The notes below the pieces were generated by a model. The model did not search any database. It was not told the DNA's origin and saw only the letters and a program-made list of their open reading frames with translations. Below are positions 1-22,446 of a DNA stretch of 64,000 bases, one piece after another. The position numbers were made by a program, and so were the translations under genes. Each line of letters opens with the position of its first letter. Position 1 is the stretch's first letter. The DNA lies in contig JAJRRO010000133.1 in assembly GCA_024279425.1 (NCBI GenBank), forward strand, positions 20,759 through 84,758, written 5' to 3'. Source of the DNA: Bacteroidota bacterium (lineage in GTDB: Bacteria; Bacteroidota; Bacteroidia; Flavobacteriales; Flavobacteriaceae).

Positions 1-2648
1 GCAAACTCTTCAAAAGACAAAGAATTTGCAAGTCCGGCAGGCATCATTGAATTCTCCAATTCCTCTCGCTTTTCTATGTCTTCTATTTTAAGAGTTGACA
101 CTTGCCCAGCTATATTTCGAATGACAAGTTTCTCGGCGGACTCCTCAGATACAAACCCCGAATAAGACTTGCCATCTTTAGTGCCGATAAGGACTGAAGC
201 AAACCCTTGGGAGATAGAGGCATTGGGCTTGAGAATTGATTCTGCAATCTGTTCACGGTTCATTATGGATCCTATCTGTCCCATAAACGGCCCTTTCATA
301 AGCTCTTCTTTTTTAATACTATGACAGGCAACACAACCTTGTTGTGTGAAAAGTTTTCCCCCAAGTTCAGCGTCCCCTTTGATCTTCGCCATGGCCAGCA
401 TAATATCTTCTATGGAGCTTTTTCTTATTTGTCCTTTTCTGTTCTTGATTTTTTCTAAATCCACCTGTGCTTCCGAATCGGCATCTTCTACATCTGATTC
501 ATCTCCGCCAAATTCGATGATTCCCATGCGATGTCTGGCATTTAAATCGGAGAAAAAGTCCTTCCCTTTGGTATTTGCTTTTTTCCATACATCAACTAAA
601 AATTCCTTGATTATTCCGGAACCTTCCCAGGTAATTCCCTTATAATAAGGACCGTGGGTATCAGGACGCGTGCTCCACCACCAAGACCCATCATAGGGGG
701 CCTCTTTTTTATATAATCGGGATATTGTGGTAAGTATTTCTTTTTTAAAATCGTCATCGTCTGTTTCCCTATAGGCTTTTATAAGGCCATTTACGGCAGT
801 GGTATCATGCATATGCCTAAGGGTCCACAATGCCAATTTAGATTGCCTGGAGCCCAAGGCCTCAACACTTTCTTCAATACCATCCAATTTCAATAATGTA
901 CGAACAGCCAAATGGGGAAGTATCACGTTTGCGTTAGGGGTCGCATGCGGGCCTTCAATACCTTTTTCTGGAGCCTTTAAAGCTACTGGCACAGGTACTT
1001 TCAATAATTCCCGTATTGCACCTTTGTTTTCAAGTCTACCCAACCCAACTATCGCTATCGCTCTAACCCTTTCAGAAGGATCTCTTAATGCCTCAAGGAA
1101 TGGCTCCAAAGGAACATCTGAAATATTTGATTTACGGTCGGCCAAGGCTCTTAATACAAATTCACGAGTACTGGAATTCTTAGTAAGGGACACTAAGTTT
1201 TCAATGCCTTCAATGCCAGCGATTTGAGCATATGTAAATATTCCTGCAATCTGGGCTTCTAATCTCAAACGTATATCCGAAGCAATTTTCCAGACCGCTT
1301 CTGAGGCATTTTTCTTATTTCTGGTCAACAATTCCTGTTGGGCATGTAATCTTATTTTTGCACTTTCAGAGGTTAAGAGTGTGGCCAGTTTATTTTCTGA
1401 TAATTCTTCCAAATCTGCAAAAGGTTTGTATTGCCATCCTTGGGGAACCACTCTTACTACAAACCCCTTATCTGGACTACCAGAATACCCGGCCCCATCC
1501 CAGGCCGACATATATATTCTTCCGGATGCATCTATGTCCAAATCCGTGATTTGGGGCAGTCCAAGAAATTCCTCCTCCTTTTGTATAAAACTGGGACCAT
1601 CTTCCCTTACCCTATGGATATACAAGTGCGACCTTCCCCAATCTGCCATCATGGGAACATTGTTGTATTTGTCCAGCCAATTGGGATCGTTCATAAAGAG
1701 TGATCCTGCGCCAGATCCCCCACCTACGTCTATAAGGGCCGGAAGTATTTCATCCGTAAAATTCTTAAACAATACAGGATACCCATATTCCCCTGATTGT
1801 ATCTGATGGATAAAACGGATATTCCAACCTCCGCCATCATTGGTATTGCCTCTTGTAAAAATATTCATATAGGGATCAATGGCCACATCATAGATATTTC
1901 GAAGGCCATGAGTATACACTTCCATTTCGGTACCATCTGGTCTTACCCTCAAAATACCACCACCCAACATGGTAAGCTCAGTACCTTCGCGATCAATGGC
2001 TCCATGAAAACCAAAATCACCTACTGCAATATAAATCCAGCCGTCTATTCCCATTTGAATACCGTTGGTAGCATGATCAGTACCCCGGCTCTGCAAAAAT
2101 TTTGGGGAACTGATGTGTTCCAGGATTGGTTTAGATGGGCCATCAGCTTTGCCATCCTGATTTTCATCTTCAAATACTACTAAATCCATTCCAGTGGCCT
2201 TACCCGTTTCTTCTGAGAATTGCGTGTGTAAAACGTAAAGTTTATTGCCTATTGGAAGGATTCCCCTCGGATTATCAACGGGTGCATAAATAGAGTGGGA
2301 ATCCATAAATCCATCATTATCGCAATCCACCAATTTAACAATACTCCCTTTACCCGGATCCTTCCCCAAGGAGCCTATCATGTCGACCCCCACAAAAACA
2401 TCTCCATTGGGTGCCACTGCCAAACATGCAGGACTAGGAGTTATATCTTCTCTTGCGAATCCGTTCACTTGGATATCGGATGGCCAATTCAATGATTGAA
2501 CAAGGGAATCGTTCCATTGCCGAAAGGTATCGGAAGGACCTTGGGGAGAGCAAACTTGTTTTTCCTCACCGCAACTTACCGCGGTAAGTCCTATTAAAAA
2601 TGCGACAAGAATATGCGATTTCTTTCTGAGTACTTGGCCTATGGTCAT
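1..2648 (-). CDS. Large lipoprotein with a beta-propeller (glucose/sorbosone-dehydrogenase-like) region, HEAT repeats and a C-terminal c-type cytochrome domain (PVC-type heme-binding CxxCH protein). Its 3' end runs off the window start.
   Basis: Minus-strand ORF from ATG at 2648-2646 that stays open to the window edge, so it is absent from the ORF track. N-terminus MTIGQVLRKKSHILVAFLIGLTAVSCG is a lipoprotein signal. A C-terminal QGCVACHSIKKEEL heme-binding motif is encoded near 307-321. The plus-strand ORFs listed between 346 and 2495 are antisense shadows of this gene. Confidence 0.6.
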   Translation of the reverse strand, partial: MTIGQVLRKKSHILVAFLIGLTAVSCGEEKQVCSPQGPSDTFRQWNDSLVQSLNWPSDIQVNGFAREDITPSPACLAVAPNGDVFVGVDMIGSLGKDPGKGSIVKLVDCDNDGFMDSHSIYAPVDNPRGILPIGNKLYVLHTQFSEETGKATGMDLVVFEDENQDGKADGPSKPILEHISSPKFLQSRGTDHATNGIQMGIDGWIYIAVGDFGFHGAIDREGTELTMLGGGILRVRPDGTEMEVYTHGLRNIYDVAIDPYMNIFTRGNTNDGGGWNIRFIHQIQSGEYGYPVLFKNFTDEILPALIDVGGGSGAGSLFMNDPNWLDKYNNVPMMADWGRSHLYIHRVREDGPSFIQKEEEFLGLPQITDLDIDASGRIYMSAWDGAGYSGSPDKGFVVRVVPQGWQYKPFADLEELSENKLATLLTSESAKIRLHAQQELLTRNKKNASEAVWKIASDIRLRLEAQIAGIFTYAQIAGIEGIENLVSLTKNSSTREFVLRALADRKSNISDVPLEPFLEALRDPSERVRAIAIVGLGRLENKGAIRELLKVPVPVALKAPEKGIEGPHATPNANVILPHLAVRTLLKLDGIEESVEALGSRQSKLALWTLRHMHDTTAVNGLIKAYRETDDDDFKKEILTTISRLYKKEAPYDGSWWWSTRPDTHGPYYKGITWEGSGIIKEFLVDVWKKANTKGKDFFSDLNARHRMGIIEFGGDESDVEDADSEAQVDLEKIKNRKGQIRKSSIEDIMLAMAKIKGDAELGGKLFTQQGCVACHSIKKEELMKGPFMGQIGSIMNREQIAESILKPNASISQGFASVLIGTKDGKSYSGFVSEESAEKLVIRNIAGQVSTLKIEDIEKREELENSMMPAGLANSLSFEEF

Positions 2649-2776: not shown

Positions 2777-4951
2777 CTAAAAATCAATGGTGGCCCCCAA
2801 CAAAAAGTTGGCGCCAGCCTGTGGGTAATACCCGGCACCTTCAATAGTCGTTGTTGTATCTGGAATAGACCATGTATCATCATAGGTATAGAAATACCCG
2901 TTTGAAACATACTTGGCATTAAATATATTATTTAACAATGCAGACAAGGTAATGCTCTTGACCACTGAATTTGCTTTAATGATATATTGCACGTTAAAAT
3001 CGGTTTGAGAATAGGCGTCCAGTATTGAACTTTTAGCATCTATATTGCCCATATACTGTTTGCCCACATATTTACTCAACACTGAAATCTGTAATTCCTC
3101 CCTTGGGTTGTATGAAATTCTGTTTCCTAATACAATATCTGGTGAAAATGTGATATTGGTATTTCCCAAATCCTGCAACACCCCATCCCTCTGAAAAACG
3201 AACTCTTTATTTTTATTTGAGCTCAGAGCCATATTAGGGCTTATGGAGAATTTACTTCCCAAAGCGATGTTAGCATCAATCTCTAATCCAAAACGATAAC
3301 TATCACCTACATTGGCCCTCAATGGAGCACCTACATCATTCAGTTCCCCTGTAAGCACCAACTGATCCTTATAGTTCATGTAATACAAATTGGTGTTCAA
3401 TTGAACATCTGAAGAGATGTAACGCCACCCCAACTCATAATCATTCAATTTTTCGGGTTTAGGATTGCCGTTTTCATAGTCATTTCGATTGGGCTCTCGA
3501 TTTGCCACAGCATATGATAAATAGAACTTATTGTTTGAATCCAAATCATAGGTAATCCCCGCCTTGGGGTTAAAGAAGTTGAACGTGTCATCAACCAATC
3601 CTGTATCATCGCCATTGGCCTCATAACCTACTCCTCTGTATTGTAGGTCCCCAAAAAGACTCCAATTATCATTCAGTTTATAATTGGCCTTTGCGAATAC
3701 ATTAAAATCGGTCTTTTTGGAGGAGTCGTCATAGTATCTATCCCGAATGCTACTATTTGGAGCGAATTCCGCCCAAATCACCTCGCCAAAATGATCGCCC
3801 TCGTACTTGTTCCATCCACCTCCAAGAATCACGTTTAATTTTTCATTGGTATAATTGGCAGAAAAAACGGTACCGTAAAAATCATTATCCAACCATCTTC
3901 GACGAATTAAGTCTGTGGTATTTACCTCAGCTCCATTAACGGTCAATGGTTGAAAGCCGTATGTGGCAAAATCATCATCTTCCTTGAATTGTTCAAAGAA
4001 ACCACGTCCTCTGGTATAATGCAATGCCAGATTTGTGCTCCAACTATCATTCAATTGCTGGTTCCATAGAAGTTGGGCATGGTTTTGCTTATAATTGTCA
4101 ACTTCGTTTTCGTAAAATTGGGTGTTCCCATTTTCATCTATATAGATTCCGGATGGATTGAAAGTCCGATCGGACTCTAAAGTGACAGCATCAATACCAT
4201 ACCAAGCTTGATAAGTAATTTCATGGCCGCCAAAAAGTACGGCTTTCAATAGCGTATTTTCTTTTTTGAAAGCGCCTTGTAAGAAATAGGAATCCAACTT
4301 TGAAGAGGCTCTATCAATATATCCATCAGAACTGATTTTAGATAACCGTCCTGAAATCTCAACATTGTCCTTTAGCAAACCCGTACTAAACCTTATATTG
4401 TTTCTCAAAGTGTTATAACTCCCAACCGATGTCGAAATTTGACCAAAGGCCTCTTCGGATACACCATCGGTCACGATATTCAGGCTCGCCCCAAAGGCTC
4501 CCGCCCCATTGGTCGATGTGCCTACACCACGCTGTAGTTGCAAACTTTGGGTCGACGAAGCAAAGTCTGGCATGTTAACCCAAAACGTGCCGTGCGATTC
4601 AGAATCATTATAGGGAATTCCATTAATGGTCACGTTTACCCGTGTGGCGTCGCTTCCTCGAACACGTATTCCGGTATACCCTATACCTGCCCCTGCATCG
4701 GATGTGGTGACCACTGCAGGCATAAAATTCAATAGAATGGGAATATCCTGCCCCAAATTCCTAGGCTTTAATTGTTCTTTGGTAAGATTTGTAAATGTTA
4801 CCGGTGATTCTTTAGTGACCCGAATGGCAGAAACAAAGACTTCATCCAAGTCTATTTTTTTACCTTTTATCGAATCTATTGGTGTTTCTTGGGCCGATAG
4901 ACCCATGGCCAGGCCAATAAGGCCCATTGTTGTGAAAATAGATGATTTCAT
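2777..4951 (-). CDS. TonB-dependent outer-membrane receptor under TPP riboswitch control (candidate thiamine or thiamine-precursor OM transporter)
   Basis: Signal peptide MKSSIFTTMGLIGLAMGLSAQE from ATG at 4951 (ORF-track start 5047 is upstream of the likely start). Plug-domain motifs (DEVFVSAIR, TGIRVRG). Terminal residue F typical of a beta-barrel. THI-box riboswitch lies immediately upstream on the same strand. Confidence 0.85.
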   Translation of the reverse strand: MKSSIFTTMGLIGLAMGLSAQETPIDSIKGKKIDLDEVFVSAIRVTKESPVTFTNLTKEQLKPRNLGQDIPILLNFMPAVVTTSDAGAGIGYTGIRVRGSDATRVNVTINGIPYNDSESHGTFWVNMPDFASSTQSLQLQRGVGTSTNGAGAFGASLNIVTDGVSEEAFGQISTSVGSYNTLRNNIRFSTGLLKDNVEISGRLSKISSDGYIDRASSKLDSYFLQGAFKKENTLLKAVLFGGHEITYQAWYGIDAVTLESDRTFNPSGIYIDENGNTQFYENEVDNYKQNHAQLLWNQQLNDSWSTNLALHYTRGRGFFEQFKEDDDFATYGFQPLTVNGAEVNTTDLIRRRWLDNDFYGTVFSANYTNEKLNVILGGGWNKYEGDHFGEVIWAEFAPNSSIRDRYYDDSSKKTDFNVFAKANYKLNDNWSLFGDLQYRGVGYEANGDDTGLVDDTFNFFNPKAGITYDLDSNNKFYLSYAVANREPNRNDYENGNPKPEKLNDYELGWRYISSDVQLNTNLYYMNYKDQLVLTGELNDVGAPLRANVGDSYRFGLEIDANIALGSKFSISPNMALSSNKNKEFVFQRDGVLQDLGNTNITFSPDIVLGNRISYNPREELQISVLSKYVGKQYMGNIDAKSSILDAYSQTDFNVQYIIKANSVVKSITLSALLNNIFNAKYVSNGYFYTYDDTWSIPDTTTTIEGAGYYPQAGANFLLGATIDF

Positions 4952-5044
4952 CCGTAAAATATATTTACGAATAAAAGGGGCTATTATTCTTGTTAAAAAT
5001 TGATTTTTGGTTTCTTGTAAACCGATTGAAATTCCAAATAAGCG

Positions 5045-5140
5045 CAACGCACATCCCTTAGCAGCATTACCCGCCCAGGTTCCTTGGGTATAATCTCAGC
5101 CCTCCGATAGCTATCGGCAAGCACCCCTTTGAGATGGCAC
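5045..5140 (-). promoter_or_regulatory. TPP (thiamine pyrophosphate, THI-box) riboswitch in the 5' leader of the TonB-dependent receptor
   Basis: Minus-strand sequence GGGGTGCttgCCGATAGCTATCGGagGGCTGAGAttatACCCaagGAACCTGggcGGGTAATGCtGCtAAGGGA. It matches the THI-element conserved blocks in order: GGGGTGC, CTGAGA, ACCC, GAACCTG and GGTAATGC...AGGGA. A variable P3 hairpin lies between the first two blocks. The core spans about 5054-5127. Confidence 0.8.
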
Positions 5141-5233
5141 AAATGTACTATTGAAAAATAACTCATCATAACAAAAAATGAATTACTTTCAAAAAATTGG
5201 ATATAGCCGTTCTTAAACTGAGGTATTCCTTTG

Positions 5234-6772
5234 TTAAACCTGATGGGTAGGTTTCAACAAATCGTTGACGGTCTTAACCGGATTAAAGGTCGCAAGTGGC
5301 ACTTCAACAAAAATAGAATTCCAAAATGCCATGGCACCATTCCAAAGCCCAGGCAATTCCAATGCTTTCAACTCCCGGCCTTCTTTGGTCTTACTTGATA
5401 TAAAACCCTGTTTGTGGTCCACAAAATTCAAAAGATTGTACTTTTCTCCATTAAAGTTCTTTACTCCACATACCAAATCAACCGGATTGAAATGGGTCGA
5501 ATTTTTGAGAATATCAACTTGCTTTTCATTGGACATGTCTATTTGAGCCGATTCAATAATCTGTAAAACAATATGATTATGTGCATTCTTTATCCAAAAT
5601 GGCCCGCCGCCAGGTTCGCCCTCATTTTTGACCATTCCACAAATTCGGATAGGCCTATTAATTTTATCTTTCAATATCTCAATCTGCTCACCAATGCTAA
5701 AACCGGAATACTTATCAATAAAGCGGACATTAAGTTCATTTTCCAAAAAGGATTTGATTTCTGTCATCAACTGAGCCGACAAATTATTTTCGTCCAATAA
5801 TTTGGCATATTCAAAGGCCTTCTCCTGTACATTTAAAAGTAATCCCGCCAACATTTTTTTACTGTTTGCCAATTCCTCCTGAGCGTCTGGTACTACAACA
5901 TTATCTATGTTCTTTATAAAAATAATATCGGCCTCTTCTTCGTTAAGATTTTCTATCAGTGCCCCATGGCCTCCTGGTCTAAAAAGTAAAGACCCATCAG
6001 AATTACGAAATAAATTATTCTCCAAATCAACGGCGACTGTATCGGTGGAAGATTTTTGATAGGAGTATCCTATGTTAAATGAGGTTTCGGTCTCTTTTGA
6101 CAAGCGCGGGTTCACTTCCTTATATTGGGCGCTGAACATCTTCATATGTTGTTCGGAAATAGTAAAGTGCAGGTTAGCCTCATCACCCATTTTAGCATAA
6201 TTTGCCGCTTCCCTTAGATGTTCTTCAAAGGGAGTCGCACTATGGTCTCCATAATTGTGGAAGGGCAAAAGGCCTTTAGGATAAAATCCGTAATTCAACC
6301 CTCCTTCCAACATCATTTCCTTTACAAAAAGATAGATTTCTTCGTCCTTGTTGGCCGCCTTTCCTTTTATTCTTTCCTGAACTACATCATAAAAGGAAAA
6401 ATTCGTAAGGCCTTGACTAAAAAGGCGTATATCGGAATCATCGGTCCGATCAATGTAGTCTTCCAAACTTTCCTTACTTGGGTCGTAAACATCCAAAAAA
6501 TTGAACAACGTCTTGAACATTCTAGAGGCAGCACCAGAAGCCGGAACAAATTTAAGAATGGACAACTTGTCCATGGATCCCTCAAAGGTATTGATTAAGG
6601 CTTTTTGTTCCTTAGCTGTAAATTTGCTTATTCCATTACCTATCACAGCGGCATTTTCCAAATCGACAAAGGGTATTCCCTCTTTAAAAATTTCTACCTG
6701 ATTCCTTACTTTTTCTTTGGTTATACCCTTTTCGGCTAATAACTCTTGGTCTTTTTCGGTCAGTTGCATCAT
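5234..6772 (-). CDS. DUF4301-like protein with a UDP-sugar pyrophosphorylase (UDPGP)-like nucleotidyltransferase fold
   Basis: 512-aa ORF. Three motifs resemble UDPGP-family pyrophosphorylases: KFVPASGAASRMF (the G-x-G-T/S-R-L/M nucleotide-binding loop), RPGGHGALI (P-x-GHG) and IKNIDNVVV (N-x-DN-L/V). Its start ATGATG overlaps the TGA stop of the upstream kinase gene (ATGA overlap). Confidence 0.55.
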   Translation of the reverse strand: MMQLTEKDQELLAEKGITKEKVRNQVEIFKEGIPFVDLENAAVIGNGISKFTAKEQKALINTFEGSMDKLSILKFVPASGAASRMFKTLFNFLDVYDPSKESLEDYIDRTDDSDIRLFSQGLTNFSFYDVVQERIKGKAANKDEEIYLFVKEMMLEGGLNYGFYPKGLLPFHNYGDHSATPFEEHLREAANYAKMGDEANLHFTISEQHMKMFSAQYKEVNPRLSKETETSFNIGYSYQKSSTDTVAVDLENNLFRNSDGSLLFRPGGHGALIENLNEEEADIIFIKNIDNVVVPDAQEELANSKKMLAGLLLNVQEKAFEYAKLLDENNLSAQLMTEIKSFLENELNVRFIDKYSGFSIGEQIEILKDKINRPIRICGMVKNEGEPGGGPFWIKNAHNHIVLQIIESAQIDMSNEKQVDILKNSTHFNPVDLVCGVKNFNGEKYNLLNFVDHKQGFISSKTKEGRELKALELPGLWNGAMAFWNSIFVEVPLATFNPVKTVNDLLKPTHQV

Positions 6773-7332
6773 TTGTTCAATAAGTTATCAATGTGTTCTA
6801 CAGCAGTTTTAAGGCGTGTTTTTTTATCCCCTTTTAAGATAACAAAATTCCTATTATGTTTCTCCAAGGTTTCCTTGAAATATAAAAACATACGTTCCCG
6901 CTCATTGGGTTTGTCTCGTAAATCATCCGCCTGCCACGGAATATCTATATATGTAAGAAAATAAAGGTCATACGAATTCGCTAAAGCATATTTCTCCAAA
7001 CTTGAATCGCAATATCCTAAATAATAAGCCTCGGAATACACCTTGGTCTCCAACAGATCAGTATCGCATACCAGCAAGTCAGAGGCTTTTTTGGCCAAAT
7101 CATTTTCCAAGCGCATTTGCCCTTCGGCAATGGGCAATAAATCCTGAGGTTCACAGGTCTTTCTTTCATTGTTCCATTTATCCTGTAGATACGCTCTGGC
7201 ATATTCCGGCACCCATACTGTATTATAATGCCTGGCAAGCTGTTCGGACAAGGTGGTTTTCCCAGTAGACTCAGGGCCAAATAACACTACTTTAACGACA
7301 TCTGAGGGTTGTTGTCTAAATTTTTCTTCCAT
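6769..7332 (-). CDS. NadR-type P-loop kinase (ribosylnicotinamide kinase-like ATPase, AAA_28)
   Basis: 187 aa. Walker A motif VLFGPESTGKTT close to the N-terminus, as in the RNK domain of NadR. Overlaps both neighbouring genes, which implies translational coupling. Confidence 0.7.
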   Translation of the reverse strand: MEEKFRQQPSDVVKVVLFGPESTGKTTLSEQLARHYNTVWVPEYARAYLQDKWNNERKTCEPQDLLPIAEGQMRLENDLAKKASDLLVCDTDLLETKVYSEAYYLGYCDSSLEKYALANSYDLYFLTYIDIPWQADDLRDKPNERERMFLYFKETLEKHNRNFVILKGDKKTRLKTAVEHIDNLLNK

Positions 7333-7925
7333 GCAAGGTAACCATATATGGCAATGAACGTAAATATAAGATACTGAATACTTGTAAACGTAAAACCTTT
7401 ATAAAAATATAAAGGGACGGAAATAATATCCCCAATAATCCAATAAATCCAATTTTCAATTTTTCGTTTTGCCATAAGCCACATACCCACAAAAAATATC
7501 GCCGTTGTCACCGTGTCAACATAAGCTGTCCAACTTGTCCATTTATCAAAGATTTGATACACCGCGTACACAAAAACCAAGGTTACAATAAATATAAGAA
7601 CCGATGTTCTTTGTTCCTTTTTTGTAGTTGAGGAAATAGGAGTAAAATGTGTGGCATCTACTTTCCGGGTCCAAATATACCACCCATAGACGCTCATAAT
7701 AAAATAATACCCATTAATGAGCATGTCCCCTATTAAACCCCACTGATAAAGTAAATATACATAAATGGATGTGCTGATCATTCCTGTTGGATACACCAGA
7801 ATGTTGTTCTGCTTTGAAAACCAAACGGATAATAACCCAAAGATTACCGCAACAATCTCAAGTACAATATGATAGGTTTGATACTCGGCGTATTGACTGA
7901 ACAAATCATCAAAAATGTGGCTCAT
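7287..7925 (-). CDS. pnuC: PnuC-family (nicotinamide riboside/Pnu) integral membrane transporter. Substrate uncertain: NR (PnuC) or thiamine (PnuT).
   Basis: 212 aa, about 7 TM helices, aromatic-rich W/Y motifs typical of Pnu transporters. Co-operonic with a NadR-like kinase, as in PnuC-NadR systems. Confidence 0.7.
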   Translation of the reverse strand: MSHIFDDLFSQYAEYQTYHIVLEIVAVIFGLLSVWFSKQNNILVYPTGMISTSIYVYLLYQWGLIGDMLINGYYFIMSVYGWYIWTRKVDATHFTPISSTTKKEQRTSVLIFIVTLVFVYAVYQIFDKWTSWTAYVDTVTTAIFFVGMWLMAKRKIENWIYWIIGDIISVPLYFYKGFTFTSIQYLIFTFIAIYGYLAWKKNLDNNPQMSLK

Positions 7926-8169
7926 ATTCGCTTCGGTCAGATTTCACAACTTTCATGTATAATAGACCCTTATCCATGAGCTCAAAAGCTTCCTTGATTT
8001 GCCTGTTCAAAACCGCCATTACTTCATCATATGTACCAAAGACTTGGGTACTGAGAGGGTTCTCTAAAATTGTAAGTCCCGATGCTCTCAATTTCTTTAT
8101 AAAATCGACGATATGCTGTTCAAAATCATCTTGAAGTGGTGAAAAAGTAAGTTCAACTGAAATTTTCAT
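7909..8169 (-). CDS. MTH1187/YkoF-family (DUF77, thiamine-binding-protein-like) small protein
   Basis: Start taken at MKISVELTFSPLQDD (internal Met of the 101-aa track ORF). The pattern I-x-V-E-L-T-x-x-P-L ... GTYDEVMAVLNRQIKEAF matches the ferredoxin-like MTH1187/YkoF family. Its 3' end overlaps the pnuC start by 17 nt. Confidence 0.55.
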   Translation of the reverse strand: MKISVELTFSPLQDDFEQHIVDFIKKLRASGLTILENPLSTQVFGTYDEVMAVLNRQIKEAFELMDKGLLYMKVVKSDRSEYEPHF

Positions 8170-8210
8170 TATACGGTTGTTGGTTGTGTTGGTAAAACTA
8201 CTAAAAACAA

Positions 8211-8852
8211 TCAACTGTCACCCAAACGAAGAGCATATACGCAGGTAAAACCCTCAAATTCCAAAAATTGGATATCATATCGCGATATATCGCCTTTATA
8301 AATAACCTGCCCTCTAATTTTGCTGTCTGAAAAATCAAAGTCTTCAATGTTGATATGCTGCATAAAGCTAAGCCCTTCGATTGCATAGATTTTATAAAGT
8401 GATTCCTTACAACCCCAAACTATAGTGAATTTACGTACCAGGTCTTTTGTGCTTTTAATATGGCTATAAGCTTCAATCTGTGTGAATTTATGAGCGATTC
8501 GCGTGATTTTTGGACGTTGCATTTCAATATCAATGCCTACCTCAATAGTATCACTCACAATAATTCCGGTAAATTGATGGGAGTGTGTTATGCTAATATG
8601 TCTGCCATCAATCAAATGTGGCTTACCCACCTTGTCATAGAAAAGATCCTTATCTTCATAATCGGCTTTGGCCATTAAATGCCGTATACTCAAAAAACCC
8701 CTACGGTGCATTTCAGATTTCATACCGTCAATTCGGTCTTGACAATGCGGGGTTAAATGAATCCCCTGTGAAAGCTCGTCCTCGGATTCTTCAATCTTCC
8801 AAATATAAACCGTAACTGTCTGGTTTACCTGTATTGTTTTATAAAGAGGCAT
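8211..8852 (-). CDS. 4'-phosphopantetheinyl transferase (Sfp/AcpS superfamily)
   Basis: The [11 protein letters not shown] motif matches the (W/F)-x-x-KE-S-x-x-K PPTase signature. Start taken at MPLYKTIQV (ATG 8852) rather than the longer track ORF. Confidence 0.75.
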
Positions 8853-8872
8853 GGTGTTATTTAGGATATTCG

Positions 8873-8880
8873 TAACTTTG
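8873..8880 (+). promoter_or_regulatory. Bacteroidetes sigma-A -7 box (TAnnTTTG) upstream of ahcY
   Basis: TAACTTTG sits 58 nt upstream of the ahcY ATG. No Shine-Dalgarno sequence, consistent with Bacteroidota. Confidence 0.35.
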
Positions 8881-8937
8881 CGACTCTTTAAAAAGAACTG
8901 CAATAATCAAACAACGAAAGTAAAAATAAAAAAGGAT

Positions 8938-10254
8938 ATGGCTATCAAAACTGTTGCATATACACCGTATAAGGTAAAGGACATTTCTCTGGCAGATTGG
9001 GGAAGAAAGGAGATTGAATTGGCCGAAGCGGAAATGCCGGGACTTATGTCACTCAGGGAAGAGTATAAGAATGAGCAGCCGCTAAAAGGTACCCGTATAG
9101 CCGGTTGTTTGCATATGACCATACAAACGGCTGTACTGATTGAGACCTTGGTCGCATTAGGAGCGGATATTACCTGGAGTTCCTGTAACATTTTCTCAAC
9201 CCAGGACCATGCCGCTGCCGCTATAGCTGCTGCTGGCATTCCCGTTTATGCTTGGAAAGGCATGACTGAGGAGGAGTTTGACTGGTGCATTGAACAAACT
9301 TTGTTCTTTGGGGAAGACCGCCAACCTTTGAATATGATTTTGGATGATGGCGGTGACCTTACCAATATGGTATTGGATCAGTACCCGGAACTTGCAGCAG
9401 GTATCAGGGGCCTTTCAGAGGAGACCACAACCGGTGTTCACCGTTTATACGAAAGGGTAAAGAATGGCACATTGCCCATGCCCGCAATCAATGTGAACGA
9501 TTCCGTCACCAAATCGAAGTTCGATAATAAGTATGGATGTCGTGAAAGTGCCGTTGATGCCATTCGAAGGGCCACCGACACCATGTTAGCCGGTAAACGT
9601 GTAGTTGTCGCAGGATATGGTGATGTTGGCAAAGGTACTGCTGCTTCATTCAAAGGGGCCGGAGCCATAGTTACAGTTACTGAAATTGACCCGATTTGCG
9701 CGCTTCAAGCCTGTATGGATGGGTATGAGGTAAAACGCTTGGAAAACGTTGTGGGTAAGGCCGATGTGGTAATCACAACCACTGGAAACAAGGATATTAT
9801 CCAGGCCAAACATTTCAAGGCGATGCGCGACAAGGTCATTGTCTGCAATATAGGCCATTTTGATAATGAGATAGACATGGCTTGGTTGAATGAAAACTAC
9901 GGCAATACCAAGGACGAAATCAAACCGCAGGTCGATAAATATACCGTTGATGGTAAAGACATTATTTTATTGGCCGAAGGGAGATTGGTGAATTTAGGGT
10001 GCGCCACAGGGCATCCAAGTTTTGTCATGAGTAACTCGTTCACCAACCAAACCTTGGCCCAAATAGAACTTTGGAAAAACACAGATGCCTATGGGAACAA
10101 GGTGTATATGTTGCCAAAGTATTTGGATGAGAAGGTAGCCAAATTGCACTTATCTCGATTGGGAGCAGAGCTTACCGAACTACGTGAAGATCAGGCTGAA
10201 TATATTGGTGTTACTGTCGAAGGACCATTCAAGCCGGAGTATTATAGATATTAG
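8938..10254 (+). CDS. ahcY: Adenosylhomocysteinase (S-adenosyl-L-homocysteine hydrolase)
   Basis: Starts at [40 protein letters not shown]-binding motif GYGDVGKG. The family is highly conserved throughout. Confidence 0.95.
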
Positions 10255-10486
10255 AATTTTGCCTTTTCTGAGAAGGTAGGAATCCAAAACAAGCATAAGA
10301 CCCTTGCAGCGATGTGATGGTTTTTATTTCATTATTACCGGAACATCGACTTTTTTATCGCCCTTCTTAGAGCCTATTTTCAAACATGCCAATTATTTTA
10401 TTATGTCTCATTTTGCGCAACTTCGTTAAAATTTTGAACCGTAGCCCTGCTATGCTTAAATATTTCGCCTCGTTTTGCCTCAAAAA

Positions 10487-10504
10487 TCGCCTGTAATCCC
10501 GATA
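10487..10504. repeat. 18-bp perfect palindrome TCCCGATAGCTATCGGGA (copy 2 of 3 of a CCCGATA-N2-TATCGGG inverted repeat)
   Basis: Exact inverted repeat in the 330-bp ahcY/nucleotidase intergenic region. Related copies are at 5103-5117 and 62301-62324. Confidence 0.6.
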
Positions 10505-10584
10505 GCTATCGGGACTAATCACATATTTCAAAACAGACTCTTAGTTAAATAAATTTTTCGGTTCTTCGTAAAAACTTTTAGACC

Positions 10585-11106
10585 ATGACAATATTTATAG
10601 ATATGGATGAGGTAATTGCAGATACCTACGGAGCCCATATAGAAATCTACAACGCGGAATTTGACCAACAACTTAACATTCAATCCTGTTTGGGAAGTGA
10701 GGTATGGCAAAAAGTGCCGGTTGAGCATCAGGAAAGTATTCGCCAACATGCAAGAAGAAGAGGGTTTTTCCAAGGTCTACAGCCTATAAAAGATAGCCAA
10801 GACATCGTAAAGGAATTGTCCAAAAAATATGAGGTCTATATTGCTTCCGCAGCCATGGAATATCCAAACTCCTTGGAGGAAAAAAGCGAATGGTTAGATG
10901 AGTATTTTCCTTTTTTACCTTGGAAAAAAAGAATCCTATGCGGAGACAAGCGTATTTTATTCGGAGATGTGCTAATTGATGACCGAAGTTACAATCTGGA
11001 AAGCTTTCAAGGTAGGACAATTCTGTTTACTTCGCCCCATAATGTCAATAGCAATGGATATGAACGCGCGAACAACTGGCTTGAAATTGGCGACAGATTA
11101 CTTTGA
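10585..11106 (+). CDS. 5'(3')-deoxyribonucleotidase (NT5C family, HAD superfamily)
   Basis: N-terminal FIDMDEV HAD motif I. 173 aa, typical of the NT5C family. Confidence 0.75.
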   Translation: MTIFIDMDEVIADTYGAHIEIYNAEFDQQLNIQSCLGSEVWQKVPVEHQESIRQHARRRGFFQGLQPIKDSQDIVKELSKKYEVYIASAAMEYPNSLEEKSEWLDEYFPFLPWKKRILCGDKRILFGDVLIDDRSYNLESFQGRTILFTSPHNVNSNGYERANNWLEIGDRLL

Positions 11107-11120
11107 TTCAAGGCCAATAA

Positions 11121-11150
11121 AAAACCCTTTCCAAAAATGAAAAGGGCCTT
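11121..11150 (-). terminator. Hairpin followed by a T-run: terminator for rpmA (probably bidirectional)
   Basis: Minus-strand GCCCTTTTCATTTTTGGAAAGGGTTTTTTATT lies between the convergent nucleotidase and rpmA genes. Confidence 0.5.
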
Positions 11151-11176
11151 ATTATCTTAAGCAGAGTGGTTAGTTC

Positions 11177-11437
11177 TTAAGCCTCAAAAGGCTCAATGGA
11201 AACATAGGATTTACCTCCGGCTTTCTTTTGAAACTTTACCAGTCCGTCTACTCTTGCATGCAAAGTGTGATCTTTACCGGCATACACATTGTCACCTGGA
11301 TTATGTTTAGTACCACGTTGTCTAACAATGATATTTCCTGCAATGGCTGCCTGGCCACCAAAAATCTTAACCCCTAAGCGTTTCGATTCTGATTCCCTAC
11401 CGTTTTTTGAACTACCTACACCTTTTTTATGTGCCAT
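11177..11437 (-). CDS. rpmA: 50S ribosomal protein L27
   Basis: [24 protein letters not shown]... matches the canonical L27 N-terminus. Confidence 0.95.
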
Positions 11438-11477
11438 GATATATTATTTTATCAACCTCGAACAAGGTCTAATTATA

Positions 11478-12041
11478 TTATTTACTTAAAGCGGCAATTA
11501 AATCAGCCTTTTTCATTGAAGAGATACCTTCAATTCCTTTGGCTTTAGCCATTTCTTTTAATTCAGCAACCGTATTCTTGCTATAATCAACAGCTTCTTT
11601 CTTTGGTGCTGCCTTTTTAGGTGCAACCTTTGGTGCTTCAGCTTTTGCCTTTGGTGCTTCAGCCTTTGCTTTGGGTGCAGCTGATTTTGGCTCTGCCTTG
11701 GCTTTGGCCGGTGCAGCTTTCTTGGCACCTTTAGTAACAATACCTTCAACAACAATCTCGGTCAATGATTGGCGATGGCCATTTTTGACTGCATATCCCT
11801 TACGTCTTTTCTTTTTAAAGACGATAACCTTATCACCTTTAAGGTGCTTTATGACTTTTGCCTCAACAGTGGCTCCGTCTATAGCTGGGGCGCCAATAGT
11901 AACATTCTTACCGTCATCTAAAAGAAGAACATTGTCAAAAGTTACCTTTTTACCTTCTTCTACCTGTAAACGGTGAACATATACTTTTTGGTCTTTCGCA
12001 ACCTTAAATTGCTGCCCTGCCATCTCTACAATTGCATACAT
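11478..12041 (-). CDS. rplU: 50S ribosomal protein L21 with a long C-terminal extension (KA-rich repeats plus a Rho_N-like helix-hairpin domain)
   Basis: N-terminal 100 aa MYAIVEMAGQQFKV... is L21. It is followed by a PKAKAEAPKAKAEAPK low-complexity tract and then TVAELKEMAKAKGIEGISSMKKADLIAAL, which resembles the Rho-termination-factor N-terminal domain. Confidence 0.9.
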   Translation of the reverse strand: MYAIVEMAGQQFKVAKDQKVYVHRLQVEEGKKVTFDNVLLLDDGKNVTIGAPAIDGATVEAKVIKHLKGDKVIVFKKKRRKGYAVKNGHRQSLTEIVVEGIVTKGAKKAAPAKAKAEPKSAAPKAKAEAPKAKAEAPKVAPKKAAPKKEAVDYSKNTVAELKEMAKAKGIEGISSMKKADLIAALSK

Positions 12042-19887: not shown

Positions 19888-22446
19888 TCAATTTAACTCA
19901 ACGGTGATTATTTGGTCATTTAAAGCTGCTTTAAGGTTCTTTATTGCTTTTGGATGCGAAGATGCTCCTATTTTCAAGGTGTAAGTATGATTTAAATCGA
20001 AAATTTTTGGTCTAAACGTATTTCCCTTAATGCGAAGAGTATATACAATCTCCTGATCGGTCTCGTCATATACTTGCACCACGGTATTTTTTGGTCCCTT
20101 AACCTTTATTTCGGGCAAATACCCTTTTGCCTTCTTTCCATAATTATCCTCCATATTAATGGTCCGTGGCCATCCTGGGTACTGTTTTCCTGTTGATACA
20201 TCCGATGGGTCCACATATCTAGGCCAGCATTCCATTGTAATGTCCCTAGTGCTCTTGGCCAAGCGTACAATACCATAACCTGGCATGCGATCGTGAAGTG
20301 CAGCCGGAGCTACGCCTGATTTAGGCCCTGGATTGGTATGCGCATATACATTGACGAAATTTCCAAACCCGTCCAAGTATTCACCGGTATAATCCTGTAA
20401 GCCTTGGATATGATTTTTGCCTTTATTTTCAAAGGGTTGCCATGCACGCGGATAGAAATTAGCAATAGAAGGTACACAGAAAGACCAACCTGCATCATTT
20501 TGACTATCAATGCCATGATGGACTATTGAAGCCAAATGTTGATCGCCTGCCAACATAAAACCAAAACCTTTTCTTATCGCGCTCAGGGCTTTGTTCCGAC
20601 CGGTTTGAGGCCAGCCATTCGAATCAAAATCCATATATAAATGCTTCAGTTCCACACCGTGGTGGGTTGCCATATTTCCAAAAATAGTCTGGGAGAGCAC
20701 TACTTTCATTTCTGAATGCGTCCAGTCCGCAGCCCAATCATTCAGAAAGTCCAATTGTCTTTTTCCCAATAAGGTAGCCCCTTCAACATCGGCCATGGCA
20801 TAGGTGTAATTGGGATCTATTACATGATCTGGTCTTCCTGATTTTGTGGGAGGTATTAGCCCATTTGGCCCAGATTTAAACTTACGGTCCTCAATTATGG
20901 CAAAACTAATTCCCCCCAAATTCATATTGGTATAGTATGTACCTATGCCTGTTTTAATGGGCGTAGGATCATAAGGGTCCGGCAAATGACTTACTTGGGT
21001 ACGCTCTACCATTTTTACGAACTCCGAGCCATGTACATACCCTCCCTTATTATCCACGTCGGTATCACCCCCGCCATTGCCCCAAACGTTGCCTTGAAAT
21101 ACATCGTGGTCATCGGGTATACTAATGGTAGGAATACTTTTGGAAATATCACTATAGGCCCAACACCATAAATACCATTTGTACATATAGTCTTTGTAAA
21201 TATGCTGTTTATCCGGAACAGAAGGACTTGCCCCCTCATAAATTTGATCTCCACTAAAGAACAGTAAATCGGCTTGTTGTTTTTCCAGATTGTCCAACAA
21301 TTGAGTATGCGGATACCATATTTGTTCCTTCCAATTGAATGGAGCTCTTTCAACTCCTTTGGCCAAATTATGATTTCCAGTAAATCCGGCGACGACAATA
21401 GTATCCTTATCCACAGGATCGGCCCTAAAAACACCTTTATAAAAATAGGTTTCCCCTGTATCTTTCAACTGATATGAAAGACGGTAGGGAACATCTGTGG
21501 TATGCTTAAAGTTTTCAATCCTGAAAAGCGCATTATAAGATAAGGGCTGAACAGTTGATGTCCCTACATTCTTCCAGCCTTGATCTGTCTCTATTTCCAA
21601 ATCCACGCTTTGGGAATCCCCTTTGCCAATAGGCATTAGTTGCGCATTTATTTTAACCAACTCATTTGATAATGTATACTGGGCCGCAAGAATTGGCCCA
21701 CTGGTATGCGTAGCGTTATAATTGAATTTTTCTCCAGACAATTCCCAGTTATTAAACCAGAATGTCGCTGTATTTTCGCCGTTTCCTGGATGGGATACCA
21801 GTGCTACATTTCCATTTAATTCGCTTTCATTGATGGTATAGGTCAACGATCCCAGTTCTTTTTTTGAAAGGTCTTGTACTTTAAGAACCATTTGATAATC
21901 TGTTCCTTGCACATCTCCTGACACCATTATGCTGTAGCTCTCAGGAAGATCATCAAGTTGTACCGAGCTCAACATTTCTTTCTCCAAATGATTAAAATCC
22001 TGGATAAATAGCATGCCATTGGCACTTAATCCGACAAAATAGCCTCCTTCATTTCCAGGACTATGGTGTATTAGTGCAGCCGCTCTATAATCTAGCGAGG
22101 CCCCTGCCCCAATTAAAAAACCGGAAGCCGCCGTTTCATTTAAATTGACATTCCCCGTTGTGCTCCCTGTGGTCACGCTCATTTTAAAGTTTCCCTTATT
22201 TGATAATCTGGAACTCACTAAATGAACCGTTCGCATGGGTTTCTTTGCTGAACTTTGAATGCAAACCAATCTTCCATCTTTCACCTCCCAATCCTGCAAG
22301 CGGTTGGCCCAAAAGTGTTCTCCTGCCCAAGTGCGATCGGTTACCTCATCCCAACTATACTCTTTCGTCTCGGTCTGTTCGCTGCAACCCACCAAAAGAA
22401 ACAGTAGGCCTACCCCTAAAATCATTCGTATTTTTATTAAAATCAT
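19888..22446 (-). CDS. PhoD-like metallophosphatase-family lipoprotein (putative alkaline phosphatase/phosphodiesterase)
   Basis: Lipoprotein signal LLVGCSEQ. Metallophosphoesterase motifs GDQIYEG (GDxxY), GNHN and DDHDV. 852 aa. Confidence 0.5.
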   Translation of the reverse strand: MILIKIRMILGVGLLFLLVGCSEQTETKEYSWDEVTDRTWAGEHFWANRLQDWEVKDGRLVCIQSSAKKPMRTVHLVSSRLSNKGNFKMSVTTGSTTGNVNLNETAASGFLIGAGASLDYRAAALIHHSPGNEGGYFVGLSANGMLFIQDFNHLEKEMLSSVQLDDLPESYSIMVSGDVQGTDYQMVLKVQDLSKKELGSLTYTINESELNGNVALVSHPGNGENTATFWFNNWELSGEKFNYNATHTSGPILAAQYTLSNELVKINAQLMPIGKGDSQSVDLEIETDQGWKNVGTSTVQPLSYNALFRIENFKHTTDVPYRLSYQLKDTGETYFYKGVFRADPVDKDTIVVAGFTGNHNLAKGVERAPFNWKEQIWYPHTQLLDNLEKQQADLLFFSGDQIYEGASPSVPDKQHIYKDYMYKWYLWCWAYSDISKSIPTISIPDDHDVFQGNVWGNGGGDTDVDNKGGYVHGSEFVKMVERTQVSHLPDPYDPTPIKTGIGTYYTNMNLGGISFAIIEDRKFKSGPNGLIPPTKSGRPDHVIDPNYTYAMADVEGATLLGKRQLDFLNDWAADWTHSEMKVVLSQTIFGNMATHHGVELKHLYMDFDSNGWPQTGRNKALSAIRKGFGFMLAGDQHLASIVHHGIDSQNDAGWSFCVPSIANFYPRAWQPFENKGKNHIQGLQDYTGEYLDGFGNFVNVYAHTNPGPKSGVAPAALHDRMPGYGIVRLAKSTRDITMECWPRYVDPSDVSTGKQYPGWPRTINMEDNYGKKAKGYLPEIKVKGPKNTVVQVYDETDQEIVYTLRIKGNTFRPKIFDLNHTYTLKIGASSHPKAIKNLKAALNDQIITVELN

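Follow-up and report, generated by a model that had tools for sequence, protein, structure and literature searches.

What is the role of a DUF4301 protein encoded at the end of an operon whose other genes suggest the uptake of a vitamin? The question is raised by a 64,000-nt stretch of DNA from a marine member of the Flavobacteriaceae (Bacteroidota; contig JAJRRO010000133.1 of assembly GCA_024279425.1), the whole of which is hereafter referred to as the window. In it, the genes for a small YkoF-like protein, a Pnu-family transporter, a stand-alone NadR-type kinase and a DUF4301 protein follow one another on the minus strand. A preliminary description of the window had proposed that the four genes may constitute a salvage pathway, in which the DUF4301 protein could make a nucleotidylated vitamin derivative or act as a non-homologous adenylyltransferase of nicotinamide mononucleotide. 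The reading that is tentatively preferred here, and which as a whole has somewhat less than an even chance of being correct, divides the operon between two processes. The transporter and the kinase would serve the import of a vitamin of the riboside type, most probably nicotinamide riboside (NR), which the kinase would trap as the 5'-phosphate, nicotinamide mononucleotide (NMN); import of NR and its phosphorylation to NMN are the tasks of PnuC and NadR. The DUF4301 protein would convert a nucleoside triphosphate (NTP) and a hexose-1-phosphate into a nucleoside diphosphate (NDP)-hexose and pyrophosphate, the product being, as the family-wide context suggests, most likely uridine diphosphate (UDP)- or deoxythymidine diphosphate (dTDP)-glucose, and would do so as a housekeeping function in the Bacteroidota and in some Acidobacteriota. 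Its gene would lie at the end of the cassette because the cassette sits in a compact same-strand array of housekeeping genes inherited within the Flavobacteriaceae.

Two sets of loci were compared with the window. The main set comprises the best 80 loci, one genome per species, with DUF4301 proteins 47-78% identical to that of the window; nearly all belong to the Flavobacteriaceae. The source of the window is Maribacter-like; its best protein match is 97% identical, and the relatives that bear names are Maribacter and Zobellia. Neighbouring genes in these loci were identified by tblastn complemented by de novo clustering. A second set of 94 further DUF4301 loci was obtained from look-ups of divergent members of the family and from a metagenome scan seeded with sequences from outside the Flavobacteriaceae, the taxonomy of the metagenome loci being an inferred one. 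Domains were assigned using Pfam and NCBIfam profiles and RNA elements using Rfam models.

The DUF4301 protein matches its family profile over nearly the entire length (PF14134; 1e-216, 721 bits against a cutoff of 27, residues 5-511 of 512). Sequence searches of the Protein Data Bank (PDB) with the protein and with a profile yielded no match. Weak matches to the UDPGP family (PF01704) were, however, returned by 14 of 27 diverse DUF4301 members, the best of them at 5e-5, while any other family was matched by two members at most. The confidence of the AlphaFold prediction varied with the alignment, from a predicted local distance difference test (pLDDT) score of 58 with 26 close homologues to a pLDDT of 91.9 and a predicted template modelling (pTM) score of 0.90 with 147 sequences from two clades. 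The top matches of the DUF4301 model in a Foldseek search of the PDB were exclusively UDP-N-acetylglucosamine (UDP-GlcNAc), UDP-glucose and UDP-sugar pyrophosphorylases (E ~1e-11). Thus, the predicted structure shares its fold with the solved pyrophosphorylases of the UDPGP class, as the preliminary description had anticipated, and places DUF4301 as a divergent member of the class of NTP:sugar-1-phosphate nucleotidyltransferases that includes UDP-glucose pyrophosphorylase (UGPase), UDP-GlcNAc pyrophosphorylase (UAP) and UDP-sugar pyrophosphorylase (USP). It differs from the UDPGP family in an identity of only 14-19%, in a score below the gathering level and in a helical stretch of about 80 residues in the model (295-372); a comparison of motifs indicates that it presumably ends where the UGPases begin their C-terminal beta-helix domain.

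The motifs PASGAASRMF, PKG, SxQ, RPGGHG, KNIDN, EPGGGPFW, HFNPVD, ELPGLWNG and FNPVKTxxDLL are largely invariant in the 147 sequences, and likewise in the Acidobacteria-like clade discussed below. By eye, we take them to correspond to motifs of the UGPases, namely the nucleotide loop, PKG with its lysine, GHG, NIDN and, at the C-terminus, PVK. An hhalign comparison with an approximate UGP2 sequence aligned only the region PGGHG..NIDN (probability 21%), a weak match that serves as a lead only. Very probably, DUF4301 acts as a nucleotidyltransferase and belongs to the UDP-sugar pyrophosphorylase class. Nucleotide-sugar chemistry is the default for a fold of the UDPGP type, and the chance that the acceptor is a hexose-1-phosphate may be put at even or slightly below. 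No publication on the function of DUF4301 was found in the literature searched, which agrees with the statement in the preliminary description that neither of the activities suggested there had been described for the family; the sole mention encountered is the detection of a DUF4301 protein in the proteome of Prevotella ruminicola.

The distribution of the family was examined for its associations. A total of 1505 clusters at 50% identity were obtained at E <= 1e-30, and nearly all of the best 150 representatives are 455-545 aa long, two of the 150 having the length of the kinase fusions described below. Members are also present in the Acidobacteriota (Thermoanaerobaculia). DUF4301 is usually a stand-alone protein and is retained by genomes that have lost or never had the kinase or the entire cassette at the locus, which counts in favour of the preferred reading. 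Within the Flavobacteriaceae, PnuC and DUF4301 occur without the kinase in L068, L075 and L079, and the whole cassette is missing from the locus in L050, L053 and L065. Within the main set, the linkage to the cassette is absent in Capnocytophaga (L065), the Saprospiraceae (L069, L070), a Prolixibacteraceae contig (L074) and a Bacteroidales contig (L080), and in two Aquimarina loci DUF4301 directly follows the gene for 4'-phosphopantetheinyl transferase (PPTase). In the second set, DUF4301 adjoins neither a Pnu transporter nor an AAA_28 kinase nor a YkoF-like gene in any of the 94 loci. The linkage of DUF4301 to pnuC and the kinase is real and narrow, being confined to the marine Flavobacteriaceae and Flavobacterium; of the conserved neighbourhood on which the preliminary description had staked its proposal, the part within these lineages stands and the part beyond them falls away.

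Other, independent neighbours point to nucleotide sugars. In the Acidobacteria-like clade, rmlB, rmlC and DUF4301 lie adjacent, in this order and on the same strand, in L090 (6350-9629), L095, L096, L097 and L100; the RmlB stop overlaps the RmlC start in L090, and the end coordinate of RmlC is the start of DUF4301. RmlC also adjoins DUF4301 in L103 and L106. Both products pass the equivalog cutoffs, that of rmlB as dTDP-glucose 4,6-dehydratase (TIGR01181, 483 against 365 bits) and that of rmlC as dTDP-4-dehydrorhamnose 3,5-epimerase (TIGR01221, 237 against 156 bits), and no rmlA was noted in the inspected flanks of the rmlB-rmlC-DUF4301 loci. A protein with a nucleotidyltransferase fold beside rmlB-rmlC is most simply the supplier of NDP-glucose. 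In this clade DUF4301 may stand in for RmlA, since it occupies the place that a nucleotidyltransferase has in the rmlABCD operons; however, RmlA (PF00483, ~290 aa) belongs to another family, and the rml context is not found in the window. In Capnocytophaga leadbetteri, the gene immediately preceding DUF4301 in the same orientation belongs to GH65, the family of the maltose/kojibiose phosphorylases (L065:7735-9882). Bacteroidetes carry GT3 glycogen synthases (PMC11046441), and Prevotella bryantii has a eukaryote-type, UDP-glucose-dependent glycogen synthase and no glgC (PMC7935935), its UGPase activity rising together with that of maltose phosphorylase (PMC4432691). One comparative study listed galU as a lipooligosaccharide (LOS) gene unique to one of four columnaris flavobacteria species.

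Since the same motifs are conserved in all the clades, the activity of DUF4301 must fit the kinase context as well as the rml context. The fold, the rml operon, the GH65 neighbour and the broad housekeeping distribution are all accommodated by an NDP-hexose (glucose) pyrophosphorylase, but the kinase fusion is not explained by it. Further neighbours were considered as functional clues and set aside: PNPOx (three loci), SDR-DapB (four loci) and RelA/SpoT (nine loci) reflect clade-specific synteny and have no common theme. The SDR-DUF4301-DapB arrangement is conserved in L083, L084, L129 and L130 (around 7246-10350), with a gene for a GH31 alpha-glucosidase just upstream in L083. An isochorismatase-family gene divergent from DUF4301 in L094 was considered as a nicotinamidase link to nicotinamide adenine dinucleotide (NAD) and was dropped, as NCBIfam identifies it as a generic hydrolase only.

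The transporter and the kinase are of known kinds. The former is a Pnu-family facilitator, with matches to PF04973 (8e-55, 186 bits), to the PnuC model TIGR01528 (111 bits against a cutoff of 42.45) and to the Neisseria mucosa PnuC structure 4QTN (E 3.6e-11); Pnu transporters have a SWEET-like fold. It carries, as WIYWIIGD, the WxxW(x)3D form of the WxxW(x)3D/N motif defined in TM6 of the Pnu transporters, which as a family carry several different vitamins (PMC5749112). TIGR01528 also accepts a second Pnu protein, linked to an outer-membrane receptor in L006 (99.6 bits), and since this is a clearly different paralogue, the model does not discriminate the substrate. The window transporter is slightly closer to 4QTN than the paralogue (46.5 against 36.6 bits). 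The D/N residue of the motif was tried as a discriminator and gave no useful separation, being D in the window and N in the L006 paralogue. The YkoF-like protein probably binds the ligand in the cytoplasm as a partner of the transporter; its sole PDB match is a weak one to SP2199 (2ibo, E 0.09).

The kinase belongs to the AAA_28 family (PF13521; 3e-44, 151 bits). It aligns with the NadR model TIGR01526 at positions 162-320 only, i.e. with the kinase half (98 bits against a cutoff of 341), and in this comparison no nicotinamide mononucleotide adenylyltransferase (NMNAT) domain was found in its 187 aa. Its best PDB matches are the kinase domains of NadR (9x6f, 1.6e-14; 8x7f, 9e-11; 1lw7, 5e-9) over residues ~9-185. 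With the solved ribosylnicotinamide kinase (RNK) domains of NadR it shares the Walker A (GPESTGKTT), EYxRxY, DTD and W..D.LR stretches, and its similarity to them is about that found among these domains themselves. It is therefore a stand-alone homologue of the RNK domain of NadR, so that the NadR-type kinase without an NMNAT half claimed in the preliminary description is confirmed. Judged by homology, the kinase and the transporter favour uptake and trapping of NR, which is fairly probable as the task of the pair.

The organisation of the four genes was examined in the main set (Table 1). Their overlaps of 17 nt (YkoF-like/pnuC), 46 nt (pnuC/kinase) and 4 nt (kinase/DUF4301, as ATGA) were reproduced in the open reading frame (ORF) listing exactly as given in the preliminary description. 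The first is 17 nt long in 57 of 59 loci. For the second, 38 loci have 46 nt and 17 have 40 nt; for the third, 20 loci have 4 nt and 22 have 7 nt, most of the others having different small gaps or overlaps. PnuC is present in 72 of the 80 loci, an adjacent kinase in 63 and the YkoF-like gene in 58. As the overlaps are conserved across the loci, the arrangement is not due to chance: the four genes are one translationally coupled unit, conserved across the Flavobacteriaceae. The coupling asserted earlier is thus upheld, and the kinase-DUF4301 fusions reinforce it.

The unit lies, however, within a compact array of housekeeping genes whose functions are unrelated, and adjacency alone weighs less for this reason. 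The common array comprises, in order, S-adenosylhomocysteine (SAH) hydrolase (on the opposite strand), PPTase, a PcrB-like gene in some loci, the YkoF-like gene, PnuC, the kinase, DUF4301, in some loci an ArfB-like gene and two-component genes, a thiamine pyrophosphate (TPP) element, a TonB receptor, GreA and HIT. PPTase, which ends 41 nt upstream of the YkoF-like start in the window, is syntenic in 69 of the 80 loci. The PcrB-like gene (geranylgeranylglyceryl-phosphate-synthase-like, as judged by eye), found between PPTase and the YkoF-like gene in many relatives (e.g. L046:7955-8689), and the gene for an ArfB-like peptidyl-tRNA hydrolase, found between DUF4301 and the receptor in many (e.g. 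L043:5086-5490), are both absent from the window, which indicates that the array gains and loses unrelated genes.

The association of the kinase with DUF4301 extends in some lineages to gene fusion. The kinase ORF is in frame with DUF4301 in five loci, namely L012 and L014 (Allomuricauda/Flagellimonas), L024, L025 (Croceivirga) and L072 (Flavobacterium orientale), at ~9431-11539 in each, and the junction in L072 is devoid of an ATG. A search with the L072 fusion identified at least 120 clusters at 90% identity (P0241-P0360) of 702-709-aa proteins with both PF13521 and PF14134; those clusters that bear species names are all from Flavobacterium. An origin as assembly frameshifts was considered and rejected in view of the at least 120 independent clusters, from many sources, with a common architecture of ~704 aa. 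Some sources name the fusions 'nicotinamide riboside kinase' or 'NAD metabolism ATPase/kinase', a name that has probably spread to some stand-alone DUF4301 proteins. As the junction sequences differ between the lineages, the fusion must have originated on two occasions at least, and probably on three, and it is stably inherited. In combining a kinase and a nucleotidyltransferase in one polypeptide, the fused Flavobacterium form resembles FKP of Bacteroides, HldE and RibF; its kinase, however, is a P-loop RNK and not of the GHMP, ribokinase or RibF type.

These fusions weigh most heavily against a DUF4301 protein that makes NDP-hexose independently of the kinase. Gene fusions usually denote a single pathway, and the repeated, stably inherited fusion is not explained by the preferred reading, of which it is the main weakness. 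The conserved ATGA-type coupling of the kinase and DUF4301 in most Flavobacteriaceae loci points the same way. It also counts against the preferred reading that the rmlB-rmlC context comes from one clade and the GH65 context from one genome. Moreover, the profile search proposed in the preliminary description, which assigned the 512-aa protein to PF14134 over its full length, failed to place it in PF01704: the match covers residues 465-509 only and lies below threshold (17.1 bits against a gathering score of 22).

The fusions are, conversely, the strongest evidence for the pathway idea of the preliminary description, in which the kinase and DUF4301 act in succession as an analogue of NadR: imported NR is phosphorylated to NMN, which DUF4301 then nucleotidylates with ATP or UTP to yield NAD or a non-canonical pyridine dinucleotide. 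The model for such a system is the PnuC plus NadR (NMNAT-RNK) salvage of Haemophilus, Salmonella and Lactococcus, which likewise has a Pnu transporter beside a P-loop kinase of the RNK family and, as in the fused kinase-DUF4301 forms, an RNK-family kinase joined to a nucleotidyltransferase. The operon coupling by 4 nt or a similar overlap in most Flavobacteriaceae loci, the five verified fusions, one without a junction ATG, and their fixation in many Flavobacterium lineages all agree with it, as do the full-length match of the kinase to solved NadR RNK domains and the absence of the NMNAT half. Yet the window unit has neither the Rossmann-type NMNAT nor the HTH domain of NadR, and NR as its substrate is suggested by homology; the UDPGP/GT-A-like partner is C-terminal to the kinase, whereas NMNAT is N-terminal in NadR; and outside the Flavobacteriaceae DUF4301 is mostly a stand-alone gene. 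The lack of pnuC and kinase neighbours in the second set and the persistence of DUF4301 in Flavobacteriaceae that have no kinase or cassette at the locus also count against the NadR analogue, and the same motifs occur in the rmlB-rmlC clade, where an NMNAT makes no sense. To our knowledge, the closest structural relatives (UAP, UGPase and USP) all use sugar-1-phosphates. On balance the NadR analogue is unlikely, and it is a shade more doubtful that DUF4301 is specifically a non-homologous substitute for the NMNAT half of NadR in the Flavobacteriaceae, with NAD or, for example, a uridine-containing analogue as its product. The NMN adenylyltransferase of the preliminary description thus draws strength from the coupling and the fusions, and loses it to the narrow linkage and to the rmlB-rmlC and GH65 contexts, which point to nucleotide-sugar chemistry.

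A compromise would be the salvage of some other compound: the transporter would import a sugar or a riboside other than NR, the kinase would phosphorylate it and DUF4301 would make the NDP-linked form, much as in salvage enzymes that combine a kinase with a pyrophosphorylase, such as FKP of Bacteroides. This would reconcile the fusion and the operon with the sugar-nucleotide fold and contexts, and it is compatible with the range of vitamins carried by Pnu transporters and with TIGR01528 not discriminating between substrates, the L006 paralogue passing it too. However, the kinase is about as close to the RNK domains of NadR as these are to one another, the neighbourhood suggests no candidate substrate and we know of no sugar kinase in the RNK family; we regard such a pathway as quite improbable. 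Still less credit can be given to nucleoside salvage, in which imported uridine, thymidine or another nucleoside would be phosphorylated by the kinase to the monophosphate and eventually reach DUF4301 as the NTP to be used with glucose-1-phosphate. It would tie the dTDP-sugar context of rmlB-rmlC to a kinase and accommodate the operon and the fusion, and the RNK domain of NadR has been described as structurally similar to thymidylate kinase (PMC7221760). The steps would, however, be non-consecutive, and the PDB matches of the kinase are the RNK domains of NadR and not, beyond the P-loop, nucleoside or nucleotide kinases. Fused enzymes rarely catalyse non-consecutive steps, and this scheme is considered very unlikely. 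The preferred reading, with NR trapped by the kinase and NDP-hexose made by DUF4301, thus retains its place together with its main weakness, and the tension between the kinase fusion and the rml context is the real finding.

Table 1. Features of the four-gene unit and its surroundings in the window.
Feature	Coordinates	Strand	Remarks
TonB-dependent outer-membrane receptor, probably thiamine-related	2777..4951	-	Plug and TonB_dep_Rec_b-barrel domains; signal-peptide-like start at 4951; neighbouring unit
TPP riboswitch aptamer variant	5036..5138	-	RF00059, sub-threshold; part of the next transcription unit and outside the four-gene operon
DUF4301 protein, 512 aa	5234..6772	-	PF14134
Stand-alone NadR-type P-loop kinase (AAA_28, ribosylnicotinamide-kinase family), 187 aa	6769..7332	-	PF13521
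Pnu-family (PnuC-like) facilitator, 212 aa	7287..7925	-	PF04973, TIGR01528
YkoF/MTH1187-family (ACT-like) small protein, 86 aa	7909..8169	-	First gene of the unit; enclosing ORF 7909..8214, ATG at 8169
4'-Phosphopantetheinyl transferase (PPTase)	8211..8852	-	PF01648 (ACPS); same-strand housekeeping array; function unrelated

The surroundings of the unit raise the further question of thiamine, to which the preliminary description had related the operon. In such a module, thiamine or a precursor would be imported, phosphorylated and nucleotidylated by the products of the operon. Two features recommend it, the YkoF/MTH1187-family first gene and the conserved TPP riboswitch with a TonB-dependent receptor nearby, and D, the residue found in the WxxW(x)3D/N motif of the operon transporter, is also that of PnuT of Shewanella woodyi (PMC5749112). 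The assignment of the first gene to the MTH1187/YkoF family stands, since its product exceeds the gathering score of the Thiamine_BP profile PF01910, albeit marginally (26.9 against 24.9 bits); this marginal match is the sole hint of thiamine within the operon.

As to its position, the riboswitch follows DUF4301 and immediately precedes the receptor. With RF00059 it reaches 34.6 bits (E 3e-4 for the 3.8 kb searched), short of the gathering score of 54.3, and no RF00059 match at the gathering threshold was found in the window or in eight related loci. The aptamer core (GGGGUGC..CUGAGA..ACCC..ACCUG..GGGA) nevertheless precedes the receptor orthologue in 45 of 64 loci, core matches totalling 51 in the 3.0 Mb searched with both strands counted, and the pairs of P4/P5 covary across the loci (GC/AU/CG exchanges). 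The element is genuine and conserved, and it controls only the separate downstream receptor. Thus, the TPP-controlled receptor of the preliminary description is supported by the conserved core and the covarying stems; it remains below the Rfam threshold and belongs to a unit of its own. Default annotation would miss this flavobacterial TPP variant.

No TPP element was detected at 5139-8600, even at E up to 10, and hence none precedes the operon. An orthologue of the receptor is present in 62 of the 80 loci, 0.2-1.4 kb or 5-6.6 kb after DUF4301; in about 23 of the 62, an insert of 5-6.6 kb that encodes a sensor kinase and a sigma-54 regulator parts it from DUF4301. In Kriegella aquimaris (L006), and among the 80 loci only there, a separate Pnu paralogue comes after the receptor (20141-20737; motif WVYWIILN). 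It is 26-28% identical to the operon transporter, is likely a PnuT and is the likelier thiamine carrier of the two. ORF and domain searches identified no thiamine pyrophosphokinase (TPK) among the four products of the unit, and no thiamine kinase is known to us in the P-loop RNK family. Thiamine uptake in Bacteroides proceeds by OMthi-PnuT-TPK under TPP riboswitches (PMC5613172). The region resembles that system in having a TPP-riboswitch-preceded TonB-dependent receptor and a Pnu-family transporter, and differs from it in that the riboswitch does not precede the transporter operon, the unit has no TPK and its transporter is a paralogue other than the receptor-linked Pnu of L006. Thiamine is a property of the neighbouring unit and not of the operon; the context drawn upon in the preliminary description is weak, and a thiamine module in the operon appears extremely unlikely.

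Some other features of the window and of the related loci may be recorded. A lipoprotein-like ORF of more than 880 aa with DUF7133 and HEAT repeats (3-2648, minus strand), which runs off the start of the window, comes immediately after the receptor in the same orientation, and the two may share a transcript under the TPP riboswitch. Two copies of the Flavo-1 RNA motif (RF01705) were found in a Flavobacterium locus, at L075:7868-7949 (minus strand, 79.9 bits) and L075:17262-17340 (plus strand, 51.2 bits), one of them upstream of the operon, inside the stretch to which the PPTase gene was matched. The sole gathering-level Rfam match in the window is the group II intron catalytic domain model RF00029 (63334-63409, minus strand, 61.5 bits). 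A scan for sigma-70 promoters and terminators gave counts no higher than in shuffled sequence, the scan model being one that does not cover the promoters of the Bacteroidota. No genes for NAD, thiamine or nucleotide-sugar metabolism were found in the remainder of the window scanned (to ~28 kb).

The components of the operon, a Pnu transporter, an RNK kinase and a protein with a UDPGP-class fold, are all of known kinds, and no description of their combination was found, in particular of the fusion of an RNK kinase with DUF4301. DUF4301 itself is a large family without a published function, common in the Bacteroidota including rumen and gut organisms of the Prevotella type, and has two independent and apparently contradictory conserved partners, a NadR-type kinase in the Flavobacteriaceae and rmlB-rmlC in the Acidobacteria-like clade. 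If it does act on the product of the kinase, it would represent a new, non-homologous route to a pyridine (or other vitamin) dinucleotide. If, as preferred here, it is an NDP-glucose pyrophosphorylase, it may supply UDP-glucose for the eukaryote-like glycogen synthase of the Bacteroidota.

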